Source: Roseiflexus sp. (GTDB lineage: Bacteria > Chloroflexota > Chloroflexia > Chloroflexales > Roseiflexaceae). From it: a stretch of 64,000 nucleotides of DNA. Position numbers and translations under genes: made by a program. Shown here piece by piece: positions 5,216-27,977 of the stretch (position 1 is its first letter; each line of letters opens with the position of its first letter). The notes under the pieces were generated by a model. That model did not search any database and was not told where the DNA came from. It saw only the letters and a program-made list of their open reading frames with translations. The DNA is taken from the NCBI GenBank assembly GCA_017743475.1, contig JAGHYV010000002.1:13844-77843 (forward strand), read 5' to 3'.

Positions 5216-7357
5216 TCACTGCCGTGTATCAATCCGGCTACGCATATCGAGCGCAAACAGACGCACACTGATCGGAGCGCCAGCGCGCGCGGGATCAGGG
5301 GTGGCAGGCGCCTGCAATGTCAGAACGTGCTGACCGGGAGGAAGCAGGAGGTGCAGTGTGCGCGCCGGTGCGCGTCCGGAAAGAATATCGAACGTGCCTA
5401 GAGACGCGCCATCCAGCGACCAGGTGAGTGGTCGTGGATGGGCATATGCTTCCAGCCAGCATGTGAGGCGCACAGGCGTCGGAGCAGGAGAAGGGTTGAA
5501 CAGACGCACCTCAGCCCGCTCTCCCATCCAACGCCAGCGAACGTCGCTGTCAGGCTGGCGTTCAAGCGGTTGCCAACCCTCCCCCAGAAATGCAATCGGT
5601 GAAACGGGCCAGGTATCCGGCATTGCGTAGACCTCCAGCGTTTCATCAACAAAGATCGGCGGCGGTATGCCCAGATCAGCCAGCAGGGGACGCACGCGCG
5701 CAAAATACTCGTCCTTATTGCTCTCCAGGTCCATCGTGATGTAGCGGATGCGGTATGCAGCAAGCGCCCGTCGTCCGGATTCGGGCCACGTGGGTAAAAC
5801 CACGTCATGTCGCTCGACTTCGCCGAACTGGATGTCGCGTATGCCCGGAGTGTACTGCGCAAATGGGTATGCTGGCGGACGAGCGACATACCCGCCGATA
5901 ATTGGCCATCTGTGAACCATTTGGGGCGTCAGATTTTCGCTGCGATTGATGTTGATGTACAGCGGCAGCGGCATCAGCGCGCCATCGGGCGGCGGAAGCG
6001 TTGCGTAGAACGGGTGGATGCGGCGCTCGACGATAGGGTGAGGTCCGGCATAGCCGTCGATGCCCACAACTGCAGCAATCAACACTGCCACAGCAATCCA
6101 CGCGCGTCTCCGTGAGCTACGAAACAGGCGCGTTTGCAGCCCCGCTCGCACGCCGTATGCCGCCAGTACCGCCAGACACAGGCTGACCATCACTGCCATG
6201 TGGTTGGGGCGCTGCCCGGCGCGGATGCCTGGCAAATCCTGAATCAGAGCGTACGGCAGCGGCAGACCGGTATGCCAGCCAGCGATCTTCAACTGTGGTC
6301 CCAGCGCCAGCAGCAGACACGCCAGCGCCAGCAGAACCCAGCGCCACGCATTGCGTCTGAAGGCGAGCGCGCCCACCGTTCCCAGGCTCAACGCCACCCA
6401 TCCCAGCGCCACGTTCCAGATGGGCGCATCGGGATAGATCTGGTTGCGCCAGGCGCGCACTGCCGGACCCCACCACGGATTGACCGGGCTTGGCAGAAAC
6501 ATATCGACCAGGTCGGCGGAGCGTTCGTACTGCACCTGACGCATGTCCCACATTCCATCTTCTGCGCGCGTTGCCAGGCTGCTCAGCGCTGGCGCCAGCG
6601 CCAGCACCCAAACGATAAGCGGGGACGTCCCCCACGCAAACACCCGCGCTCCTTGCAGCACCCGCTGATTGTGCTCAGATGAACGAAAGGCCCCACACCC
6701 CCAGATGCACGCCGCGCATCCAGTATAGAGGGCGGCAAACAGTCCGTAGTACCAACTGCCCAGACTGACCCACACAAGCATTGCCCCGGCTGCCAGCGCC
6801 CAGCGCCACGATGGGCGTTCGAGGAGCAGCAGCAGGGTATAGGCGTACCACGGAAGCCAGTGGATGGCGGCGACTTCCAGATTGCCGTCGATCACTTTTT
6901 CCACGTGATAGGGCGAACAGACAAAGGTGGCGCCGGCAACCAATGCGGCTCGTTCGTCGCCGGTCATCCGCCGTGTGAATAAGAACGTTGCGTATCCGCC
7001 GATGGTGAAACTGGTGAGCACGACCCAGTTCACCGCAGCAATCGATCCGAGGGTAAGGGTCACCGGCAGTGCCAGGATGCCCTGGCTGAAGCCGATAGGC
7101 TGCCAGAAGAGATCAATGCCGTCCGGGTAGAAGAGCAACGGAGAAAAAAACGGGTTGCGCAGCGACGTGATTGCATATGCGATCCACCACAGGTTCCAGG
7201 CGTTCTGATAGGCGTCAACACCATCGACAGCGCCAATAACGCCGCGTGTCAGGTTGATCGTCAGCGGCCAGGTGAGGATCACGCCGAGGAACGAGTAGAC
7301 TGCCAGGGAGATCAGGTGGAAATGTATGCCTATCATCGAAGTGCGCTGTGCATCCAT
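5216..7357 (-). CDS. Multi-pass membrane GT-C-like protein (YfhO/PMT-like) with C-terminal GxGW..E..RW beta module
   Basis: ORF 5216-7438, probable start at 7357 or 7336. Contains YQNAWNLWW, LFYPDG, many TM segments, PIIGGYVARPP and LGEGWQPLE...RWRW; paralogous to 23801-25975. Confidence 0.75.
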   Translation of the reverse strand: MDAQRTSMIGIHFHLISLAVYSFLGVILTWPLTINLTRGVIGAVDGVDAYQNAWNLWWIAYAITSLRNPFFSPLLFYPDGIDLFWQPIGFSQGILALPVTLTLGSIAAVNWVVLTSFTIGGYATFLFTRRMTGDERAALVAGATFVCSPYHVEKVIDGNLEVAAIHWLPWYAYTLLLLLERPSWRWALAAGAMLVWVSLGSWYYGLFAALYTGCAACIWGCGAFRSSEHNQRVLQGARVFAWGTSPLIVWVLALAPALSSLATRAEDGMWDMRQVQYERSADLVDMFLPSPVNPWWGPAVRAWRNQIYPDAPIWNVALGWVALSLGTVGALAFRRNAWRWVLLALACLLLALGPQLKIAGWHTGLPLPYALIQDLPGIRAGQRPNHMAVMVSLCLAVLAAYGVRAGLQTRLFRSSRRRAWIAVAVLIAAVVGIDGYAGPHPIVERRIHPFYATLPPPDGALMPLPLYININRSENLTPQMVHRWPIIGGYVARPPAYPFAQYTPGIRDIQFGEVERHDVVLPTWPESGRRALAAYRIRYITMDLESNKDEYFARVRPLLADLGIPPPIFVDETLEVYAMPDTWPVSPIAFLGEGWQPLERQPDSDVRWRWMGERAEVRLFNPSPAPTPVRLTCWLEAYAHPRPLTWSLDGASLGTFDILSGRAPARTLHLLLPPGQHVLTLQAPATPDPARAGAPISVRLFALDMRSRIDTRQ

Positions 7358-8678: not shown

Positions 8679-8954
8679 ATGGCAACGTGTGATCTTACCG
8701 GCAAGAAAGTCGCCTTCGGGCGCAACATTCGCCACAAAGCGTCCGGGGGATGGGCGCGCCGCGCTCCCAAAACCAACCGCACCTTCCGACCGAATGTTCA
8801 TCGGCACACGATATACGTGCCGGAGATCGGGCGCACTATCACGCTCAATCTTTCGACGAAGGCGCTGCGGACGATCAACAAGAAAGGGTTGATCGCCGCC
8901 GTGCGTGATCAGGGGCTGTCGGTCGAAGCATTTCTCAAGGAGCACCTTCGATGA
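8679..8954 (+). CDS. rpmB: 50S ribosomal protein L28 (Cys-poor paralog type)
   Basis: [19 protein letters not shown]...[11 protein letters not shown]...STKALRTI; only one Cys. Confidence 0.9.
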
Positions 8955-9217
8955 CGCATCAGGACGGATCTCACCGTATGCGCGGACGTGGGAGGCGCAA
9001 AAAAGTCTGCGAATTTTCGCGTCTCGGCATCTTGCCGGACTACAAAGACCCGGAGCGGCTCAAACGTTTTCTTGGTCCGACGGGGAAAATCCTGCCGCGC
9101 CGTCGCACCGGTCTGAGCGCAAAAATGCAACGTAAATTAACCATTGCTATCAAACGAGCGCGACATATGGCGCTTTTGCCATTCGTCGAGCGCAGTATCA
9201 CCGACCGGCGACGCTGA
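8951..9217 (+). CDS. rpsR: 30S ribosomal protein S18 (Cys-poor paralog type)
   Basis: KKVCEFS...[49 protein letters not shown]; no CxxC. Confidence 0.92.
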
Positions 9218-9241
9218 ACCGCAGTTGTGGGTGCGTATCAA

Positions 9242-9331
9242 GAATTGAATCCTCAATCTTCATGAGCCCCACAATCAGAACGTTCGGCATACCGGATGAG
9301 TCGCCGGACTACCGCGCAAATACCGGTTTCT
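9242..9331 (+). repeat. ~90-bp degenerate intergenic repeat (second copy 15085-15176)
   Basis: GAATTGAATCC...TCTTCATGAG...CGTTCGGCATACCGG-ATGAG...GACTAC aligns with GAATTAAGTCC...TCTTCATCAG...CGTTCGGCATGCTGG...ATGAG...GACTAC. Confidence 0.6.
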
Positions 9332-9492
9332 GCATAATGTTGGCCCCTCCGCGTCGTTGTCGCCGCGTGGGTGACAACAACAGTTGCGTATCTCCACGTT
9401 TATGCCGACAGTCAGGCGACGTTGTTTCCCCGCCCTCTGTTTCTCGACCCTGTACGCCGCTTTCCAAATCAACAGAAGTCGCCCAACCTTGA

Positions 9493-9520
9493 TTGACACG
9501 TGCGTATCGTTCTGTATACT
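9493..9520 (+). promoter_or_regulatory. Sigma70-type promoter of the His-rich gene
   Basis: TTGACA (9493-9498), 16 bp, TATACT (9515-9520). Confidence 0.6.
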
Positions 9521-9578
9521 AGAGGTAACAGACGCAGGCGCGCCGGATGAGCCTGCCAGGTGGAAAGGAGCCAGAGTG

Positions 9579-9902
9579 ATGTCGCATACGGTTCACGAAC
9601 CGCATCCTCATGTCCACAGCGAGCATTGTGGGCACATTCGCATTCTTCACGACGGGCACGTGGATTATCTGCATGACGGACATCTGCACTACCCGCACGA
9701 GGGGCATTATGATGAGCATGTAATTGCAGTCAGCGCCGATAACCCCGATATCTGCGCTCCCATTGCATGCCAGTGCGGACATGATGGATGCGGACATCCA
9801 CTTGTTCCACATGGTGACCACTACGACTATCTGGTAGATGGACGTTTGCATCACTCCCACGGTGATCACTGCGATGACCATGGTCCGGTGACTGTGGTGT
9901 AG
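9579..9902 (+). CDS. His/Cys/Asp-rich small metal-binding protein with an internally duplicated motif
   Basis: AAGGAG RBS. Two copies of CGH...H(D/G)(G/D)HxDYLxDGxLHxxHxxHxDxH in 107 aa. Confidence 0.8.
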   Translation: MSHTVHEPHPHVHSEHCGHIRILHDGHVDYLHDGHLHYPHEGHYDEHVIAVSADNPDICAPIACQCGHDGCGHPLVPHGDHYDYLVDGRLHHSHGDHCDDHGPVTVV

Positions 9903-11024: not shown

Positions 11025-12224
11025 CTACTTGAGGAAGAAGGTGGTATACAGCCCAACCAGGATGAAGAAGGCGAACCACGCGCCCAGCATACCGGTGGCA
11101 ATCGACCCAAATTGTTCTACGCGCGGCGACACGCTGCCATCGCGCTTCGTCCCGCCTGATTGATACAACACCAGCGCCAGGTACGTGACGACGGCAACGC
11201 CGACGATGGTGGTTACGCCAAAAATCAGGATCGACCCCCAATCTATGATGTAGGGGTACTCAGATACGCGATACCCAAACCGTTCCAGAGAGACTGCACG
11301 GATGACTTCCCGCACAACGCCGACCGTCATCAGCGATGCAAACCAGACCAGCAAGGTACGCGGTGCGTGCTGCATCGGTTGCTTCAAGAAGAAGAAATAG
11401 CTGGTCAGCGCCAGTCCAAGACTCGTCAGCGCAACCCCAAGTGGTATGCCGATGCCGAACTCGACGCCTTCCGTCGCTGCCCATAGCAGGCCGGCCAGTG
11501 TATACAGCGGACTGACGACCAGACCGATCAATCGTCCTTGCCTGGCGACCCACTGCATAAAGGGCGCATCCTCTTCAATACGCCGGAAATACCATGCGAA
11601 CAGGGTGAGCACCACTGCCAGGCTCAAGCCCGCCTGCAATGGTAGAAGAAACGTCAGGCGCGGGATATTCCATGAATGGAAAACAACACCGCGCGTGTCG
11701 ATAACACCGTTCGGCGCGTACCATTCCATCCAACGCTCAGGACGGATCGACACCGATGCCAAGACGTGCATCACCCATCCGGCGAAAAAGAGCAACACGA
11801 ACGACGCCACTGCCGACCAGAGCAGTTTTCCGTCGGCGCTCCCTTTGAGATAAAACAGATACGCCAGACCGTAGCCACCCATCATCACAAAGATGAAACT
11901 CACCGACCAGAAACCGGTCAAGGCATTGCTTGCGTACCAGAGAGGGTCATGGATCGTCTGCACGAAGAGCAGCGGCGCAATTCCCGTCACAATGCCGAGT
12001 CCAACCGCGTTGGGCGTCAGCCGTGCTGCGACGCGCCCCAACCGCAGGCGATAGTCAGTCGGGCGCAGGAAACAGGCAATCGAGCACGCGCTCGACCCAA
12101 GCGCCAGGGTTACAAAGAAGATGTGCAAGACCCATGTCACCACCAGCAATACCTGTAATGCAGGCGGATAGAACGGTGCACCCAGCGGGTCGCGCATCCG
12201 TTCGAGCATATCGCCAATGTCCAT
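11025..12224 (-). CDS. CydA-like membrane subunit (second paralog) of a cytochrome bd-superfamily complex
   Basis: ~10 TM segments with WVLHIFFVTLALG, NAVGLGIVTGIAPLLFVQ and REVIR, echoing CydA helices; directly downstream of 12228-13634. Confidence 0.65.
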   Translation of the reverse strand: MDIGDMLERMRDPLGAPFYPPALQVLLVVTWVLHIFFVTLALGSSACSIACFLRPTDYRLRLGRVAARLTPNAVGLGIVTGIAPLLFVQTIHDPLWYASNALTGFWSVSFIFVMMGGYGLAYLFYLKGSADGKLLWSAVASFVLLFFAGWVMHVLASVSIRPERWMEWYAPNGVIDTRGVVFHSWNIPRLTFLLPLQAGLSLAVVLTLFAWYFRRIEEDAPFMQWVARQGRLIGLVVSPLYTLAGLLWAATEGVEFGIGIPLGVALTSLGLALTSYFFFLKQPMQHAPRTLLVWFASLMTVGVVREVIRAVSLERFGYRVSEYPYIIDWGSILIFGVTTIVGVAVVTYLALVLYQSGGTKRDGSVSPRVEQFGSIATGMLGAWFAFFILVGLYTTFFLK

Positions 12225-12227
12225 GTC

Positions 12228-13634
12228 TTACCTCCTGACTTGCGCCTGGGGTTGTGGCGCATACTGCTGTTGAACGAAGTATTCCAAATACAGCGCCATT
12301 GCCGCCCGTTCTTCGGGTGTGCCGACAAACGGGTGCATGTAAGGGAAGGCGCCAATGCGCTGCAGGTACGCTTCAATCTTCGGTGCAGTCGTCATCTTGC
12401 GTCGCTCCAGCAACTGCGCCAGCGAACGCAGTGCCAGGCGCTGATCAAAAATAGTGATCGCCGTCTGATTGCTGACACTGTGGCATGCCGCGCACTGCTG
12501 AATGACCAGCACACGCCCCATCATAACCTGATGATCGGGCAGTCCGGCTGTCGCTCCAACCGAAATCGTCTCTGGACGTGGCAGAAACGGCAGTGAACCG
12601 AGCATACCAGTCTCGTTCAACGGCTCCTCTTCGCTTTGAATTCCACGCGCAGGGATATCGTTGAAGACCAGTTGATTCGAGGACATATAGCCAGCAATAA
12701 TGTCTGGCTTACGAATGACTTCACGGGTGCGCTCCGCGCCAAAAATGGCAGCAAACAGCACTAGCATCGCCCCAAGTGCAATGATCGGATGCTGACGACG
12801 CGGCATTGCCAGCGCAAACAGCAACCCCAGGAAGGTCGCAATCAGCCCACCGACAATGACCGTAAATGTAATAGGTGGAATGGCTGGAGAGCGCAGAATA
12901 GTTTTTGCATGATCCGGAAGCACAGGGTAGAACCAGAGGAACCAAATGCCAAGTGCGATGATCAGCCCGCCGAGCCCTATTGCTGCCGCTGTACGGATGA
13001 TCTGCTCACGCGCGAAATATCCTTTTGGCAAGCTGGTAGCGATTAGCATTACCCAGGCTGCAGTGATGGTGAACATCAGGAAAAACCGCGTGAGCAGCTG
13101 CGGCCAGAAGGTGGGGTTGAAGAAACCGTTCAGGCTCTCACCAGTCGTAAACCAGAGTCCCGGTGTCAACTTGAACGACAGAATGCCGACAATGAGCGTC
13201 AAGGTACCGGTGCCTCCCAACGCCAGAATCCACGCCAGCCGCAGGTGCGTTCGCGGACTGACCCGCCCGAAGGTGTAATAGTAGGCGATAATCCCCACGA
13301 CATCGATCAGGAACATGTACCATTCTGAACCCCAGTAGAGCACAAAATTGTGGATGAGAGTGGAAATACCACGTGGGTTGGCAACAGTCGTAGTTTGCCA
13401 GATTCCCACGCCTGCCAAAGCGCCAAAGACGTATGCGAACACCAATAGCCCCAGTGCACTCCGTTTGAGATAGACGTACAGTTCCGGGCGATTTTCGTAC
13501 ACTGCGCGCCGTTCCAGGTACAGGTTGAACCACGCTGCCGCAACCGTCAGGTGCGAAACAAGGACATGGAAGGCGGACACAATAGCGACGAACATCGCCG
13601 AGTGAATGAAGATACCTTCCCATACCGGATACAT
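12228..13634 (-). CDS. CydA-like membrane protein with C-terminal c-type cytochrome (CxxCH)
   Basis: AFHVLVSH, WGSEWYMFLID and ERTREVIRKP are CydA-like; no Q-loop; CAACH and a distal Met (YMHPF) near the C-terminus; GGAG RBS. Confidence 0.75.
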   Translation of the reverse strand: MYPVWEGIFIHSAMFVAIVSAFHVLVSHLTVAAAWFNLYLERRAVYENRPELYVYLKRSALGLLVFAYVFGALAGVGIWQTTTVANPRGISTLIHNFVLYWGSEWYMFLIDVVGIIAYYYTFGRVSPRTHLRLAWILALGGTGTLTLIVGILSFKLTPGLWFTTGESLNGFFNPTFWPQLLTRFFLMFTITAAWVMLIATSLPKGYFAREQIIRTAAAIGLGGLIIALGIWFLWFYPVLPDHAKTILRSPAIPPITFTVIVGGLIATFLGLLFALAMPRRQHPIIALGAMLVLFAAIFGAERTREVIRKPDIIAGYMSSNQLVFNDIPARGIQSEEEPLNETGMLGSLPFLPRPETISVGATAGLPDHQVMMGRVLVIQQCAACHSVSNQTAITIFDQRLALRSLAQLLERRKMTTAPKIEAYLQRIGAFPYMHPFVGTPEERAAMALYLEYFVQQQYAPQPQAQVRR

Positions 13635-13683
13635 AGGTGCTCCTCGTGATTGCTCAGCGGCGACATATCGTGATATACTTCAC

Positions 13684-13703
13684 GATTATTTGCAATAATA
13701 ATC
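13684..13703. promoter_or_regulatory. Perfect 7-6-7 inverted repeat overlapping the predicted -10/TSS (candidate repressor site)
   Basis: GATTATT-TGCAAT-AATAATC; the minus-strand -10 TATTAT is at 13700-13695. Confidence 0.55.
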
Positions 13704-13722
13704 ACAAAGTATCCGGCTGTCG

Positions 13723-13736
13723 TTGCGCTGGCGCAA
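13723..13736. promoter_or_regulatory. Crp/Fnr-family (NnrR-like) box at -41.5 of the cydA-like promoter
   Basis: TTGCG-CTGG-CGCAA is a perfect 5-4-5 palindrome. Its centre is -41.5 when TATTAT (13700-13695) is taken as -12..-7. Confidence 0.7.
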
Positions 13737-13786
13737 GTTTGCGAGGGCATCGGGAGAGATTATTGAACAGTTGCAACGGTGCGATA

Positions 13787-14473
13787 TTACGACTCGAATG
13801 ACGTCTCCGCCCGCGTGAGCAATTGCTGGCGATCAGTCACAACCACGCACCCGCGTCGACTCTGCACCAGACCCTGCTGTTGCCAGAGATGGAGCAGGCG
13901 ATTGACAGTGTAGTGACTCACGCCGATAAGATCGGCAAGATCGCGCTGCATAATCGGTATCTTCACCTGTCCTGGTGCGCTGATCGGCGCGCCATACTGG
14001 TCAGCGAGGCGGATGAGCGCATGCGCCAGGCGTTGCTCCACATGCTCAGTTGCCAGTTCAAGAAATTGCTGTTGAAGATGATCACGATACTCAGATAGCA
14101 GTCGCAAACTGCTACGCTGGAGCACCGGGTAGCGGTCGATCAAACGGTGCAGGTCGCATGCGCGCCAGGTGAGCAACCGGCAGGGCGAAATCGCCTGTGC
14201 TGCGAGGGTGTACATCCCTTCCGGCAGAACTGCGCTGATCCCGACTATATCCGACGGACCGGACAGGCGAATGACGCTCTGTCGTCCATCAGCAGCGAGT
14301 TTGTAGAGACGTACCCATCCATTCTGCACTGCATATAGCGCTTCCGCCGGAGTATGTTCCTCAAACAAGATTGCACCGCGTCGTGCCTGAGATACACGCG
14401 CATAAGCGGCAATATCGTCGAGCGCCTGGGGATCGAGACCTTCGAAGAGTCGGTAGCGTTCAAGCACGTGCAT
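13787..14473 (-). CDS. Crp/Fnr-family transcriptional regulator (no FNR Cys cluster; Dnr/NnrR-like)
   Basis: cNMP-binding fold (GAILFEE...GWVRLYKLAADGRQ), HVEQRLAHAL and HTH QRDLADLIGVSHYTVNRLL. Confidence 0.88.
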   Translation of the reverse strand: MHVLERYRLFEGLDPQALDDIAAYARVSQARRGAILFEEHTPAEALYAVQNGWVRLYKLAADGRQSVIRLSGPSDIVGISAVLPEGMYTLAAQAISPCRLLTWRACDLHRLIDRYPVLQRSSLRLLSEYRDHLQQQFLELATEHVEQRLAHALIRLADQYGAPISAPGQVKIPIMQRDLADLIGVSHYTVNRLLHLWQQQGLVQSRRGCVVVTDRQQLLTRAETSFES

Positions 14474-14588: not shown

Positions 14589-15038
14589 TTATGATAATGC
14601 TGACAGATGCAAGCGGGCAGGGCGGACGCTACGCGGCGGAGGGGTCAAGGGCGGCAGAGGTTGATGACGGGGGCTATCTTGAACAGTCGGAGTTGCGCCG
14701 ACAGGATGCAGCGCGTGTCCGATCATCAGCAATGTCGTCAGCACGATTGGGTGCACAATCTCCGGCAGATGGTGGCTCAATGGTGTCTGGTCGTCAGAAT
14801 TCAATGTCCGTTCGCCAAAATTGCAGACGAACAGCGGCAATGGCTGTGTCATAAGTCGCTGTACCCACGGCATCACCTGGCAGTGAATGATACACATCAC
14901 TGGGGCATGCAATGCGACACACCAGAAAAGGAACAGAACCAGAGCGCATTGAACCGCGCGCCGTACTGCGCGCATCGGTGGATGAAGGAGAATAACCAGA
15001 TTTGGTGTTGCCGACGAGCCCTCAGGCATCACGATCAA
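14589..15038 (-). CDS. DUF2946/CutF-like small protein (signal/TM segment, CxxxC, Pro-rich C-terminus)
   Basis: Hydrophobic ALVLFLFWCVALH, CIIHC and C-terminal PLPPLTPPPR; likely start at 14975 or upstream. Confidence 0.55.
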   Translation of the reverse strand: MIVMPEGSSATPNLVILLHPPMRAVRRAVQCALVLFLFWCVALHAPVMCIIHCQVMPWVQRLMTQPLPLFVCNFGERTLNSDDQTPLSHHLPEIVHPIVLTTLLMIGHALHPVGATPTVQDSPRHQPLPPLTPPPRSVRPARLHLSALS

Positions 15039-15176: not shown

Positions 15177-15378
15177 TATTGTCAATCTTCATATGCGTTG
15201 ACCTGGGTGGATCGGCGCATCTCGATAAAGGTGACGATCGGACGCACCGTCATGATAGTAGACTGTGAAAGAAAGCGCAAATCAATCGCCGCTCGTTTTG
15301 CGAGACGCTATCAGTCAATCCCCGGCATATGGTACAATGGGAGAGAAAACGCTGCTCTGGAGTAAGAAGGGCAATGCA

Positions 15379-15843
15379 ATGAGTCGTTTTCTTGACGAAC
15401 GCAGACACACGCTGCCGCCCGCAGTAACGACCCTCGCTGAACAACTTGCTGCTGCCGGGTACAAAGTCACCCAACCGCGCCTCGCAGTGCTTAAAGCGAT
15501 CACGTCGCTGCCCGGTGCATTCAGCGTTCAGGAAGTCGAGCAGTGGCTGATCGAACGTCATGAGTCGCCGGGAATCGCCAGTATCTTTCGCACTATTCGG
15601 CTCCTCTGCGACCTTGGCATGCTCCAGCGCATCCACGGTCTGGACGAGTGCCATCGGTACTGTCTGGGCGGCGGGCACAGTCACCATCTGGTATGCACGC
15701 AGTGCGGCGTTATCGAGCGCTTCGACAACTGTGGCTTGCAGGGAGTTATTTCCGGGCTTGAACAGTCCACCGGCTATCGCATCACCAGCCACGTGGTCGA
15801 ACTGTTTGGTCTATGCCCGCAGTGTCAGTCGATCACAGCCTGA
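15379..15843 (+). CDS. Fur-family transcriptional regulator (Zur-like)
   Basis: KVTQPRLAVL, SIFRTIRLL, HSHHLVCTQCG and FGLCPQC; AGAAGG RBS. Confidence 0.9.
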   Translation: MSRFLDERRHTLPPAVTTLAEQLAAAGYKVTQPRLAVLKAITSLPGAFSVQEVEQWLIERHESPGIASIFRTIRLLCDLGMLQRIHGLDECHRYCLGGGHSHHLVCTQCGVIERFDNCGLQGVISGLEQSTGYRITSHVVELFGLCPQCQSITA

Positions 15844-15938
15844 ACCGGCGGCGATGTCCCACTCCCGTTCCCGGAAACCGCCTGCGGTGCGGTCTGATGT
15901 GGCGCACCCACGGGCGCCGCTGATACAGCGAAGCGTTT

Positions 15939-16019
15939 TCAGGCATCAGGACGCCCAAACTCCCCCTTCTCCACTTGTGGGAGAGGGGAATGAGGAGCAA
16001 AAGCGCACGGGAATGCAGC
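15939..16019 (+). repeat. REP-like element (copy of 10053-10142)
   Basis: TCAGGCATCAGGACGCCCAAACTCCCCCTTCTCCACTTGTGGGAGAGGGGAATGAGGAGCAAAAGCGCACGGGAATGCAG, between convergent fur and permease genes. Confidence 0.8.
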
Positions 16020-16026
16020 AACCGGG

Positions 16027-17160
16027 TTATGATCCGAATATCCGGTTGAGCAACAGTCCTAGCAGCATCACATACGCCGCATACCAGAGCACAACCTTGA
16101 TGGCGTTGATGCGCCCGATCAACCGGTCGAGCATCGCCCATTCCGGGATCGATGAGACTGTAGTTGCCATCATCGCCGCTATCAATGTTCCAATCGGCAC
16201 GATCTGGTGGAGGGCCACCAGGATCGGCCCCGTTGATGCAGCATTGATGTCGAGCGGCAACCCCAGCAGCGTGGCCGCGATCGGACCCCACCATGCAGTA
16301 CCAGCCTGCTTCAGGTACTGGACCAGCGTGAGATTGAAATTGACCAGGATGCCCGCTAGCAATCCGCTGAACAGCACGACGCCGAATAACCGTTTGAACA
16401 GGGTCCACGCCTCACGGTGCGCGCGGGTCAGGATGCTTTCTTTGACACACCCGCAACCGGGATGGTCGGGCAGGTGGCGTTGCACAAACCGCGATGGATC
16501 GAGTCCCAGCAACGGTGCAAGGTACGCCGTGGCCAGCGCCGCAGCAATCCCTGCCAGAACGTAGATGAGTGCGCCGGTCGGACCGACGATCACGAACATG
16601 AATATGATCGCGAACTCATTCAATGCCGGGCTGGCAAACAGAAAGGCGGACGAAGCGCGCTGGCTGGCACCGCCAGCAACAAGCCCGACATACAGGTTCG
16701 TCACTGTGCACGAGCAGACCGGGGTCACCATCCCCATCAGCGTCCCGCCAACGGCGCCGATCAGGTCGTTGCGTCCGATAGTGCGTTCGATCCACGTTGT
16801 GCTGATGCGCAGGCGGATCAGCGCCATGCCATACGTGGTCAAAAACAGGATGATCGGCAGTTTGAACCACTCATATATCGTGTACGATGCGGTATATTTC
16901 ACGTCGAGCGGTCCGAACGGAGTAGGCACAATCCATGCTGGCATCCAGTCGGTCAGCGCCTTCCCCAATGCTTTCCCGGTCTGCGCAATCGGCGCTTCAA
17001 AGACCGGCACGATGCTTCTGGCTTCGGCGCCTGCCAGCCACGCACTCATACTCTGGAACAACGCCATCCCGACAATCAGCGTCAGCACTGCGAGCGAAAT
17101 GATCGGCATCACGCGCTCGAACGATCCACGTGCAGCGGTCAAAGTTGGACGGTTGAGCAT
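16027..17160 (-). CDS. Predicted permease (DUF318/ArsP-like, two-repeat)
   Basis: GMVTPVCSCTV, AFLFASPALNE and a second-repeat LGLPLDI; GGAGAGG RBS before ATG 17160. Confidence 0.8.
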   Translation of the reverse strand: MLNRPTLTAARGSFERVMPIISLAVLTLIVGMALFQSMSAWLAGAEARSIVPVFEAPIAQTGKALGKALTDWMPAWIVPTPFGPLDVKYTASYTIYEWFKLPIILFLTTYGMALIRLRISTTWIERTIGRNDLIGAVGGTLMGMVTPVCSCTVTNLYVGLVAGGASQRASSAFLFASPALNEFAIIFMFVIVGPTGALIYVLAGIAAALATAYLAPLLGLDPSRFVQRHLPDHPGCGCVKESILTRAHREAWTLFKRLFGVVLFSGLLAGILVNFNLTLVQYLKQAGTAWWGPIAATLLGLPLDINAASTGPILVALHQIVPIGTLIAAMMATTVSSIPEWAMLDRLIGRINAIKVVLWYAAYVMLLGLLLNRIFGS

Positions 17161-17173
17161 ATCCTCTCCGTAA

Positions 17174-17190
17174 ATGATAGTAAATATCAT
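17174..17190. promoter_or_regulatory. Fur/Zur-like operator
   Basis: Perfect 6-5-6 palindrome ATGATA-GTAAA-TATCAT just upstream of the permease RBS. Confidence 0.65.
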
Positions 17191-25979: not shown

Positions 25980-27977
25980 TTACTTGCTTTCCGTAGCGGT
26001 GTAATCTGCAAGCTGCACCTTTAATGCCGTAACACTTAACTCACGCTGCGACTGCGGGTCATACGTCGTCGGCGCACGCAGGCGCAATCGGGTTTGTCCC
26101 GGCGGTGCGGTCACTCCTATGCGATAGGTGCGCATTGGGCGCTGCACGTCCCAGCGCGCGATCAGGCGTCGATCGTGCCACAGTTCCACCGGGCGCGCCG
26201 TCTCGTAAGACGCCAGGGTCAACGCCAGCGTCATATGGATTGGCGTATCATACGGGTTGACCAGCCAGAGCGTGTTGTTGGCGCTGCCCCAGCGATAGGC
26301 TAAGGAACCGGCATATTCAGTAGCATACCAGCCTCTTCCCAGCGCAACCCATGGACGGGAGCGATCAAGAGTTGATTCTTCGGGTCGATCTCTGTGGTTG
26401 CATTCTATTACCATGCCTAATTGCCCTGGTGATGTAATACGCTTGCAACTTAAATCAGGATAGCGACTCTCCAGGAGACGCTGTACGTTTGCATCATTTG
26501 TAAACACGTATATGGGCTTCTTTGATCGAATCCAGCTCTTCTTTATTTCTAGGTTAGGAGATTTATGCCATTCTTTTAATGTTTTTCCGTAAATTTCTAA
26601 CCAATAGTCGAGATATCTCGGCATTGCCATCTTATCCCACTTGTGAATTATGAAGATAGATTCCTCCTGGCAAATCTCAGCAAACTCTTTCATAAGTGCG
26701 GATGGTTTATAATAATTCTGGTAATAATTGTTTGTAATGTCTTGTAAATGCCTTCCAGATTCTAAATTTGATAGCAGGATTCTATCGCGATATACTACTG
26801 AAAAAGTAAATGAGATGATAGCGGCAAGAAAGATCAATACGAGAGAAATAGAAGTAAATCGAACATCGAAACCTTTGATTGCTTCTTTCAGAGATATACC
26901 CCCGATCATAGAGAAAGGGATGACTAATGGAATAAATGTTCGGTCAAACGGTTTGTCACCCCTAAGAGCACTCAATAAGAATGGAAGCACCATTAATATC
27001 AGAAGTAGGTAAAATCCACTGTAATCCTGATTTTTATCCCTAAAAATCTTTATAAGTCCATATAATACTGGTAAGAGTAGTAACCATCGTTTTGAGATGA
27101 GATGTCCCAAAAATGCAGGCATAAGTTCTGTTATTGTGCTCAAGTTGGGCATTCCTGATGTTCTTGTCATATTATTGTCGATAACTTTTGGAAGGATAGG
27201 GATATACCAGACTGTAGCGACGGCGATGCCCGACACAACCATGACCGCCAGCTCTATCTCGCGGTTGGATGTTAATCTTCTGTCAGGTTGGGCATATTTA
27301 TTTCTAGACCGCGAAAACAGATACCTCGATAACCAATAAATAAAAATAGGTGCGGTAACGTAGATATTTGATGGTATGGTGTAAAAGAGCAAAGAAGTTA
27401 GTGCCACGACCAAAAACCCACTTATTCTACTTCCACTCCTATAATAATGCAAGTTATAGTATAAGATCATTCCGAGCAGTGTCATGCTCAAAGTATAGCC
27501 TCTGACCTGGACAGTAAAGTTTACAGAAGGCAGGGTTGATCCCAAGATAATAACTGCAAGAAATCCCGCTAACGGATCAAAAAAGTCTCTTACAGTCCTA
27601 TAAACATATACAAACGTCAAAAATGTGTAAAACAACATTAGTATGCGAATTTTCCAGGGTTCTCTGAGCAGGTCGAAATCATCGATGCCAAGCCCGTACA
27701 GGTAAAGGTGGTTTAGTATGTTGGCGAAAATATGATTATTTGGTGCGCGATAGTCGGTTACAATCGTTGAGATCGGAACAAACACAAAATGATGTAGTGT
27801 ATAAATCTCGTCATACCAGAAATCGAGATTGATGTATGCAGCAACGACATAAATAAGCCATGGTAGCGCAGCAGCGCATGCTATCAGCGTCCACGCAAAC
27901 TCTGAGCGAGAAGACAAACTCTTTGCAGTTTTGTCTGATAATGCGAGTAGGGCGGACATGCCTGTATGCGAATTCAT
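25980..27977 (-). CDS. Chimeric GT-C (PMT/ArnT-like) membrane protein: low-GC body plus duplicated native C-terminal module
   Basis: DFWYDEIYT, NNHIFA and VQVRGYTL motifs. Sampled lines 26521 and 27001 are 32% and 30% GC. The last ~105 codons closely match those of 23801-25975. Confidence 0.8.
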   Translation of the reverse strand: MNSHTGMSALLALSDKTAKSLSSRSEFAWTLIACAAALPWLIYVVAAYINLDFWYDEIYTLHHFVFVPISTIVTDYRAPNNHIFANILNHLYLYGLGIDDFDLLREPWKIRILMLFYTFLTFVYVYRTVRDFFDPLAGFLAVIILGSTLPSVNFTVQVRGYTLSMTLLGMILYYNLHYYRSGSRISGFLVVALTSLLFYTIPSNIYVTAPIFIYWLSRYLFSRSRNKYAQPDRRLTSNREIELAVMVVSGIAVATVWYIPILPKVIDNNMTRTSGMPNLSTITELMPAFLGHLISKRWLLLLPVLYGLIKIFRDKNQDYSGFYLLLILMVLPFLLSALRGDKPFDRTFIPLVIPFSMIGGISLKEAIKGFDVRFTSISLVLIFLAAIISFTFSVVYRDRILLSNLESGRHLQDITNNYYQNYYKPSALMKEFAEICQEESIFIIHKWDKMAMPRYLDYWLEIYGKTLKEWHKSPNLEIKKSWIRSKKPIYVFTNDANVQRLLESRYPDLSCKRITSPGQLGMVIECNHRDRPEESTLDRSRPWVALGRGWYATEYAGSLAYRWGSANNTLWLVNPYDTPIHMTLALTLASYETARPVELWHDRRLIARWDVQRPMRTYRIGVTAPPGQTRLRLRAPTTYDPQSQRELSVTALKVQLADYTATESK

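Follow-up and report, generated by a model that had tools for sequence, protein, structure and literature searches.

A CydA paralog pair of the OR-C1 type and its putative NnrR-like activator in Roseiflexus

The bd superfamily has been divided into the qOR, OR-C and OR-N families (Murali, Gennis and Hemp 2021, doi 10.1101/2021.01.16.426971). As described in that paper, OR-C1a is an eight-helix CydA homolog without the quinol site and without the ligands of haem b558 (F183 in the reference); it keeps H19, E99 and E107, carries CxxCH motifs in a periplasmic C-terminal extension, and adjoins its paralog OR-C1b. The phylum table of the same paper records OR-C in 41 phyla, including Chloroflexota, Deinococcota, Armatimonadota, Aquificota, Campylobacterota and Nitrospirota. 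Here we describe two adjacent genes that, by the features of their sequences and modelled structures, represent an OR-C1a/OR-C1b-type member of this family, together with the Crp/Fnr-type regulator gene that precedes them and the promoter that lies between. The genes were found in a 64,000-nt stretch of Roseiflexus sp. DNA (contig JAGHYV010000002.1, positions 13,844 to 77,843), which is called the window below; loci compared with it are cited by L numbers where they have to be told apart.

Two other described systems resemble the pair. CydAA' (qOR4a/qOR4b) of Caldivirga maquilingensis likewise consists of two CydA paralogs without CydB, the second of which lacks the quinol-site features. However, CydAA' is a quinol oxidiser found only in Archaea and contains no cytochrome c, whereas subunit 1 of the window has neither the quinol site nor the b558 ligands. 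Canonical CydAB, known from E. coli, Geobacillus and Mycobacterium structures, shares with the window the fold of both subunits, the histidine of the first transmembrane helix (TM1) and the acidic channel pair of the O2-reducing four-helix bundle. The window proteins are nevertheless only about 12-15 % identical to CydAB, have eight helices instead of nine in the CydA-like subunit, lack the Q-loop, the b558 ligands and any CydB family match, and appear to receive their electrons through a fused cytochrome c. The literature yielded no biochemical study of an OR-C enzyme, and a 2026 paper cites OR-C as a phylogenetic class only.

The gene pair and its place in the bd superfamily

The regulator, subunit 1 and subunit 2 are encoded by co-directional open reading frames (ORFs; Table 1), with a gap of 3 nt between the stop codon of subunit 1 and the start of subunit 2. 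For all three genes, the nearest relatives come from genomes of Chloroflexus and Roseiflexus and from metagenomes of hot springs.

Table 1. Features of the locus in window coordinates (strand as annotated; a point marks palindromes)
Feature	Position	Strand	Remarks
Subunit 2, OR-C1b-like CydA paralog	11025-12224	-	399 aa
Subunit 1, OR-C1a-like, CydA-like with fused monohaem cytochrome c	12228-13634	-	468 aa
Haem c attachment motif, codons C381-A-A-C384-H385	12480-12494	-	CxxCH invariant
Shine-Dalgarno sequence AGGAG	13640-13644	-	5 nt before the subunit 1 ATG; invariant in the six-locus alignment
Box 2, palindrome ATCGTGA-N6-TCACGAT	13667-13686	.	predicted +3 to +22; unique exact match in the window
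-10-like hexamer TATTAT	13695-13700	-	22 nt after box 1
-35-like hexamer ACGACA	13718-13723	-	from a promoter scan; overlaps the last base of box 1; 17 nt upstream of the -10-like hexamer
Box 1, palindrome TTGCG-N4-CGCAA with CCAG as N4, TTGCGCCAGCGCAA	13723-13736	.	predicted regulator site
Crp/Fnr regulator	13787-14473	-	228 aa; Pfam cNMP_binding and HTH_Crp_2
Small ORF, hydrophobic, His/Cys-rich	14589-15038	-	149 aa; between the Fur-family gene and the regulator; candidate unit member
Fur-family regulator	15265-15843	+	Pfam FUR; same neighbourhood in L084, L088 and L092
ArsP_1-type permease	16027-17190	-	weak similarity to Cu/Zn efflux transporters; conserved synteny

The membrane part of subunit 1 is a remote homolog of CydA. 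Its match to Pfam Cyt_bd_oxida_I (PF01654; E 1.4e-4, 21.1 bits) stays below the cut-off of 26.2; such a weak match is common among its homologs, and the protein is approx. 30 % identical to Desulfobacterota proteins that carry PF01654 and PF13442. An AlphaFold model built on a 30-sequence alignment (predicted local distance difference test, pLDDT, 86.5) comprises eight transmembrane helices and a C-terminal domain, and in a Foldseek search of the PDB its ten best matches are all CydA chains (E 1e-7 to 2e-5, TM 0.5-0.6), followed by CydB. Phmmer and a full-length profile recovered only cytochrome c domains from the PDB; a profile restricted to the membrane part was needed for CydA, and it aligns to M. 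smegmatis CydA (9r2g_A) with an E value of 0.0095.

The conserved residues of subunit 1 follow the OR-C1a pattern. In particular, H23 is invariant in the 30 homologs and aligns with the TM1 haem-ligand histidine of 9r2g_A (the position of E. coli H19), E104 (E. coli E99) is invariant, and D111 falls on the second channel glutamate (E107) in the HMMER alignment. Position 111 is Asp in the clade formed by Chloroflexota, Deinococcota, Armatimonadota and Actinomycetota and Glu elsewhere; thus, the acidic character is kept while the residue is not identical, and the E104-D111 spacing is i, i+7, as in qOR2 and qOR3. A Q-loop is absent, the link between TM6 and TM7 of the model measuring approx. 15 residues, and both b558 ligands (the H186 and M393 positions) are missing. 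E301, R304, E305, R308 and P310 are conserved at the end of TM8. The idea that the invariant E305-x-x-R308-K-P310 corresponds to CydA E445-x-G-R-Q-P-W, which contains a haem b595 ligand, is kept as an idea only, since neither HMMER nor hhalign aligned the two motifs. The C-terminal part matches class I cytochrome c domains in a profile search (E 3.6e-8), and the invariant M433 is the likely sixth ligand of the haem c.

Subunit 2 has no Pfam match, and its paralogy to subunit 1 becomes apparent only in a profile comparison: BLASTP between the two gives a non-significant E value of 0.097, whereas hhalign pairs them over 252 columns with a probability of 96.7 % (E 4e-10) and places H34 opposite H23. 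The model of subunit 2 (pLDDT 90.1) again finds CydA as its best structural match in Foldseek, followed by CydB. Approx. ten transmembrane helices are predicted, with the invariant H34 in TM1 and without the acidic channel pair or a haem c; Bacteroidota relatives carry a cytochrome c in place of the last two helices. CydB-type subunits bind no haem. Judged from its sequence, subunit 2 may carry a haem of its own. Besides H34, a pair of residues, M152/H153, is nearly invariant in this protein; the codons from H34 to H153 span window positions of about 11766-12125.

These features agree with OR-C1 in most respects. The window and the described family share two adjacent CydA paralogs, the first with eight transmembrane helices, the H19 and E99 equivalents and a C-terminal CxxCH but neither b558 His/Met nor quinol site, and the second without the channel glutamates. 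They differ in that the window has one haem c (Desulfovibrionia members have up to 8), in the Asp at the E107 equivalent, and in subunit 2, with its approx. ten helices instead of eight and no haem c. The homologs found here fall in phyla listed for OR-C, with close homologs in Chloroflexota, Deinococcota and Armatimonadota. Relatives are present in at least 591 species-level genomes; among the carriers are strict anaerobes, non-denitrifying sulfur oxidisers, sulfate reducers and gut Sutterella, and Thermus thermophilus has a plasmid-borne copy of the pair.

A preliminary description of the locus, made from the sequence alone, had recognised two tandem CydA homologs without cydB, a missing Q-loop and a CAACH cytochrome c in subunit 1, and a likeness to the OR-C family. 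All of this is borne out by the paralogy of the subunits, their structural similarity to CydA and the absence of a match to PF02322. That description had also placed a Thr at the position of the b558 His; there is indeed no His, yet the residue aligned there by HMMER is the invariant R183, and T182 is its neighbour. The proposal of a candidate new module does not stand, since the pair fits the OR-C1a/OR-C1b family described in 2021 and recorded for Chloroflexota. Equally, it is not a canonical CydAB, given the sub-threshold PF01654 match and the lack of PF02322, the Q-loop and the b558 His and Met.

The promoter and its regulator

Two described regulators are the closest in kind to the one encoded beside the pair. 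NnrR of alpha-Proteobacteria, an NO-responsive Crp/Fnr activator of nirK, nor and nnrS, has no FNR Cys cluster, like the window regulator; both are encoded directly upstream of a known or predicted target promoter, in which a TTGCG-N4-CGCAA site lies 22 nt before the -10 hexamer. The two differ in the recognition helix (TTLHTVSR in NnrR, SHYTVNR in the window), in the target, which in the window is predicted to be a bd-type oxidoreductase and not nir or nor, and in the phylum, here Chloroflexota. DnrT of Thermus thermophilus, the master activator of nitrate respiration, is by its description likewise a Crp-like activator of anaerobic-respiration promoters in a thermophile; it is insensitive to O2 and nitrate and drives a gene (drpB) for a DUF1858 protein (PMC6282519). 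Unlike the window regulator, DnrT, reported to be signal-insensitive, acts together with DnrS, and the OR-C pair of Thermus has no adjoining Crp gene. The main text of the OR-C1 paper does not mention Crp/Fnr, FNR or nitric oxide (NO).

The palindrome upstream of subunit 1 (box 1) is the only exact TTGCG-N4-CGCAA in the 64 kb and fits the published NnrR consensus ctTTGcgnnnncgCAAag (PMC1274295). The combination of box, spacing and -10-like hexamer is shared by eight Chloroflexales loci: the window, L001, L083 (Roseiflexaceae), L084 (with one mismatch in the box), L088 (R. castenholzii), its near-copy L089, and L081 and L092 of C. aggregans. The distance from box to hexamer is 22 nt, or 23 nt in one C. 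aggregans locus, and CGACA follows the box in six of seven Chloroflexales loci. In a six-locus alignment of the intergenic region, the main invariant blocks are the box, which is the most conserved, the TAT of the -10 hexamer and the ribosome-binding site. Moreover, the window and R. castenholzii do not differ at all over the first 46 nt of the promoter core, while the flanking genes share 72-82 % of their DNA sequence. It is this conservation across loci, and not the single occurrence in the window, that excludes a chance origin of the box. The spacer between the regulator stop codon and the box varies, from approx. 50 nt in the window to 170-460 nt in close relatives (L001 4203-4661, L088 6685-7048, L084 5690-5859).

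One reading of box 1 and two kinds of candidate element were discarded. Box 1 is not the terminator hairpin of the regulator gene, as it has no T-run and its distance from the stop codon ranges from overlap to more than 450 nt while that from the -10 hexamer is fixed; an AT-rich palindrome over the -10 hexamer (ATTATT-GCA-AATAAT) is not conserved in other loci; and two exact boxes, one each in L060 and L067 of Proteobacteria, lie away from any promoter of the pair and seem to be fortuitous. Downstream of the hexamer lies a second palindrome, box 2, whose core GTGA-N6-TCAC is kept at slightly different distances in L001, L084, L088, L081 and L092 and is absent in L083. Judged from its sequence, box 2 could be a second operator or a hairpin in the 5' end of the mRNA; its core is CRP-type and thus would fit a canonical CRP with an Arg-Glu helix rather than the adjacent regulator.

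Contigs from hot-spring mat metatranscriptomes are identical to parts of the operon (12186-13236), which indicates that it is transcribed in situ; they are too fragmentary, and partly chimeric with rRNA, to place its 5' end. Contigs from a related strain carry an insertion of approx. 155 nt at window positions ~13772-13777.

The regulator has no conserved Cys in an alignment of five Chloroflexales orthologs, and the Cys cluster that holds the [4Fe-4S] centre of FNR is absent. Its recognition helix reads S-H-Y-T-V-N-R (R-E-T-V-G-R in CRP), of which HYT(V/I)(N/S)R is invariant in the first five Chloroflexales orthologs aligned; the L092 regulator has Pro in place of His. Y-T-x-x-R is common to all TTGCG-associated regulators in the alignment. 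Orthologs of the protein are confined to Chloroflexales, and it matches no NCBIfam NnrR model. Among solved structures it scores 98 bits with GlxR, 85 with Mycobacterium tuberculosis CRP and 61 with Dnr. A tblastn search of plasmids returned alphaproteobacterial Crp/Fnr genes as the best matches (29-36 % identity, 120-137 bits), with scores similar to or above that of GlxR and clearly above that of Dnr; the products are unnamed Crp/Fnr proteins, and the genes sit among nnrS, DUF1858, DUF2249, pseudoazurin and nosZ genes.

The same site and geometry recur far beyond Chloroflexales. A metagenome collection scanned for the 19-mer TTGCGCYAGCGCAACGACA yielded 110 loci (L094-L203), of which eight are Chloroflexales OR-C loci and approx. 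15 lie inside one conserved 847-aa ORF and were set aside as coding coincidences. At approx. 29 further loci, with G+C contents of 49-70 %, the site lies a few to approx. 60 nt downstream of a same-strand gene for a distant Crp/Fnr protein (26-40 % identity and 74-158 bits with the window regulator). The helix of nearly all these proteins reads T-(L/I)-(F/Y)-T-V-S-R or S-P-F-T-(V/T)-S-R and thus has an aromatic residue where CRP and FNR have Glu181. According to a published rule, positions 180 and 181 set the bases at half-site positions 3 and 6 (PMC1274295), and an aromatic residue at position 181 combined with a TTGCG site fits this rule. In 27 of 35 distinct, unrelated metagenomic promoters, the box is followed at a distance of exactly 22 nt by an xAxxxT hexamer; the chance expectation is approx. 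1 in 16. These promoters precede genes for DUF1858 or 'hybrid-cluster-protein-associated redox disulfide' proteins (at least nine), response-regulator receiver proteins (at least ten), FdxA ferredoxin (three), hemerythrin (two), NirK (above its curated cut-off) and cytochrome c oxidase subunit I (CtaD). An NnrR-type locus of Azospirillum has the same layout, namely the regulator gene, TTGCGCGGGCGCAA, 22 nt, TAGGTT and a DUF1858 gene, and its helix reads T-T-L-H-T-V-S-R; in Bradyrhizobium, nnrR adjoins a DUF1858 gene preceded by a TTGCGC box (PMC6710368). We found no name for the widespread Crp/Fnr group with an aromatic residue at the CRP-E181 position (for example, L108, L144, L183, L094, L115 and L160).

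Because site, geometry, gene order and kinship agree, it is well supported that the regulator is a putative NnrR-like activator acting at a class II-type promoter. This is what the preliminary description had proposed, and its observations of a Crp/Fnr protein without Fe-S cysteines and of a HYTVNR helix hold true. It had also put the box at -41.5 from TATTAT; the box, the hexamer and the 22-nt spacing are there, while the figure of -41.5 applies only if transcription starts approx. 7 nt after the hexamer, at a predicted position of ~13688. The inducing signal would be NO or low O2, by analogy with what the box-sharing relatives control.

It is possible, although we would not call it probable, that the regulator does not sense NO, either because it acts downstream of another sensor in a concentration-dependent manner, as DnrT is reported to do in Thermus (PMC6282519), or because box 2 and a canonical CRP place the operon under the control of carbon or energy status. 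With the L092 paralog in the alignment, none of the His and Cys residues of the sensor domain is conserved, DnrT shows that a DUF1858-protein gene can be driven by an activator insensitive to O2 and nitrate, the closest solved relatives of the regulator are cAMP receptors, and box 2 bears the G3/A6 signature that is linked to an Arg-Glu helix (PMC1274295), which the adjacent regulator lacks. However, the cAMP-contacting Glu and Arg of CRP appear, as read from the alignment, as Ile and Tyr in the regulator, and it is box 1, not box 2, that is invariant and tied to this regulator class across phyla.

Gene context of the pair

When the ORFs of approx. 90 OR-C loci were clustered, the only universal partner of subunit 1 was subunit 2 (74 of 79 loci). 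Genes for flavocytochrome c sulfide dehydrogenase, cytochromes c, response regulators and metal homeostasis recur around the pair; beside it, no nir or nor gene was seen in these loci. In particular, at least 14 gamma- and beta-proteobacterial loci (L037, L041, L042, L044, L045, L047, L048, L059, L060, L066, L067, L073, L076 and L079) encode on the same strand OR-C1a and OR-C1b, then a small cytochrome c and the flavocytochrome c sulfide dehydrogenase flavoprotein FccB, and lastly a dihaem cytochrome c. Their hosts are sulfur oxidisers and the gut bacteria Sutterella and Duodenibacillus, and the arrangement on one strand suggests a donor chain that feeds cytochrome c. The main text of the OR-C paper does not mention flavocytochrome, and no title or abstract on this link was found. 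In Campylobacterota, an OmpR-type regulator gene follows the pair, and in Dissulfurispira the pair itself follows genes for CcoI/CcoS-like proteins, including a Cu-ATPase, and canonical cydAB.

In the window, the order ArsP-type permease, Fur-family gene, small ORF, regulator, subunit 1 and subunit 2 is part of a recurring arrangement (the small ORF is not always present) that is also seen in R. castenholzii, a Chloroflexus sp. metagenome-assembled genome (MAG) and C. aggregans; the preliminary description had suggested checking the synteny across Chloroflexota. The genome of C. aggregans (CP001337.1) contains two paralogous regulator-OR-C1a-OR-C1b trios, L081 (~3.27 Mb) and L092 (~2.48 Mb), each with its own TTGCG-N4-CGCAA box (CTAG as N4), and only one of them keeps the ArsP/Fur synteny of the window. 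The small ORF has an equally placed counterpart in R. castenholzii (46 % identity, E 1e-41), and a family search with it gave no match; NCBIfam leaves the Fur-family protein ambiguous among Fur, PerR and Zur. Among the genes annotated at window positions 5216-30124, the OR-C operon is the sole predicted target of the regulator, and no nir, nor or nnrS gene is found there or beside the pair in the other Chloroflexales loci.

Several further observations concern the window and its relatives. Metal-homeostasis genes recur near OR-C pairs, including window 15265-17190 and L082, L086 and L090. At 8679-9902, L28 and S18 genes lie beside a His-rich ORF (9384-9902) and may form a Zur-regulon-like cluster. 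A 665-aa ORF without Pfam match (25980-27977, minus strand), situated inside a glycosyltransferase/methyltransferase cluster, lies in a 2-kb stretch of 43 % G+C, compared with approx. 57 % elsewhere, and may be horizontally acquired. A search of Rfam found no RNA family in the window. In the Chloroflexus sp. MAG (L084), a TGA at codon 5 of subunit 1 causes the gene to be called 15 codons short (5962-5976), and the box (5860-5873) has a CGCAA to AGCAA mismatch; these are either sequencing errors or marks of a decaying copy.

Proposed function and its significance

Bd oxidases work without copper and withstand both sulfide and NO. We consider it moderately probable that the pair is a copper-free, NO- and sulfide-tolerant cytochrome c oxidase of the OR-C1 type, regulated by an NnrR-type protein and induced under nitrosative or low-O2 stress. 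The two CydA paralogs would form a heterodimer without a quinol site, and a periplasmic carrier, either a cytochrome c or, in these organisms, auracyanin, would reduce the haem c of subunit 1. From there, electrons would pass directly to the conserved haem site of the four-helix bundle, with its TM1 His and acidic channel pair, so that the missing haem b558 is bypassed. The enzyme would then reduce O2 and take over when NO or sulfide poisons the haem-copper oxidases or when copper is scarce. The regulator is predicted to bind TTGCG-N4-CGCAA near -41.5 and to switch the operon on by class II activation; an NnrR-type regulator at such a promoter would imply induction under nitrosative and/or microoxic conditions. 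As for NO tolerance, E. coli cytochrome bd-I is called NO-tolerant in an abstract.

Several points weigh against this proposal. Subunit 1 matches Pfam CydA below threshold and subunit 2 not at all, the second channel residue in the clade of the window is Asp instead of Glu, and the literature reports no activity, haem content or transcription start for any OR-C enzyme. The link to flavocytochrome c comes from Proteobacteria, not Chloroflexales. As the metatranscriptome contigs of the related strain span the intergenic region, transcription may read through from the regulator gene. The regulator is only 26-38 % identical to its box-sharing relatives and has no conserved His or Cys pointing to a sensing cofactor; thus, it could sense another signal, or its concentration alone could govern its action, as with DnrT of Thermus. 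Finally, a regulator of the NnrR type is equally compatible with an enzyme that consumes NO and with one that tolerates it.

Catalase and peroxidase side activities have been reported for bd oxidases, and the pair might accordingly be read as a protective enzyme, that is, a periplasm-facing scavenger of O2 or peroxide with chemistry like that of cytochrome c peroxidase, expressed together with metal and oxidative-stress genes. Such a role would suit the neighbourhood conserved in four Chloroflexales lineages, with its Fur-family regulator gene (possibly for PerR or Zur) and its metal-efflux-like permease gene, the thioredoxin/DsbB neighbours in Acidimicrobiia, ZnuA and CobW in Thermus and CobW in Armatimonadota, and the presence of the family in strict anaerobes. 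We regard this explanation as unlikely, as E104 and an acidic residue 111 are kept and match an energy-conserving proton channel, the operon shared with sulfide dehydrogenase and cytochromes c resembles a respiratory chain, and the type of the Fur-family protein is ambiguous.

It is doubtful, finally, that the pair acts as an NO reductase, a cytochrome c-dependent member of the bd superfamily that converts NO to N2O at a di-haem site and is NO-induced through the NnrR-like regulator, a role the preliminary description had raised and gene context does not support: this regulator class and box control nirK, DUF1858 and hemerythrin genes elsewhere, NnrR of Bradyrhizobium drives norCBQD and nirK, the enzyme is cytochrome c-fed like cNOR, and C. 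aurantiacus has a copper nitrite reductase while its genome paper names no NO reductase (PMC3150298), but no nir, nor or nos gene was seen beside the pair in the approx. 90 clustered loci, the family occurs widely among sulfur oxidisers that do not denitrify, sulfate reducers and gut Sutterella, its conserved partner in Proteobacteria is a sulfide dehydrogenase, the assayed superfamily members named in the cited papers are O2 reductases only, and no homolog named C. aurantiacus is among those found. If it were true, it would add an NO reductase unrelated to the haem-copper NO reductases and could explain how NO is disposed of in organisms with NirK but without a recognisable NO reductase; in Chloroflexales with NirK alone, it would supply the NO-reducing step that they lack.

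As no assayed OR-C member was found in the literature, the family stands as a branch of one of the three oxygen-reductase superfamilies without known function. Thermus thermophilus is a genetically tractable thermophilic host. Its plasmid-borne OR-C copy would offer such a host for knock-outs and structural work. The enzyme family itself was already known, and the regulatory inference, which draws on broad comparative evidence, is the most valuable part of the present analysis; the survey behind it also outlines a widespread group of Crp/Fnr proteins with an aromatic residue at the CRP-E181 position and a fixed promoter architecture. For the proposed copper-free cytochrome c oxidase, the dedicated NnrR-type regulator and promoter in the cultured phototrophs C. 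aggregans and R. castenholzii predict induction by NO, nitrite or low O2, and the recurrent operon link with sulfide dehydrogenase predicts both its electron supply and a role where sulfide or NO would poison copper oxidases.

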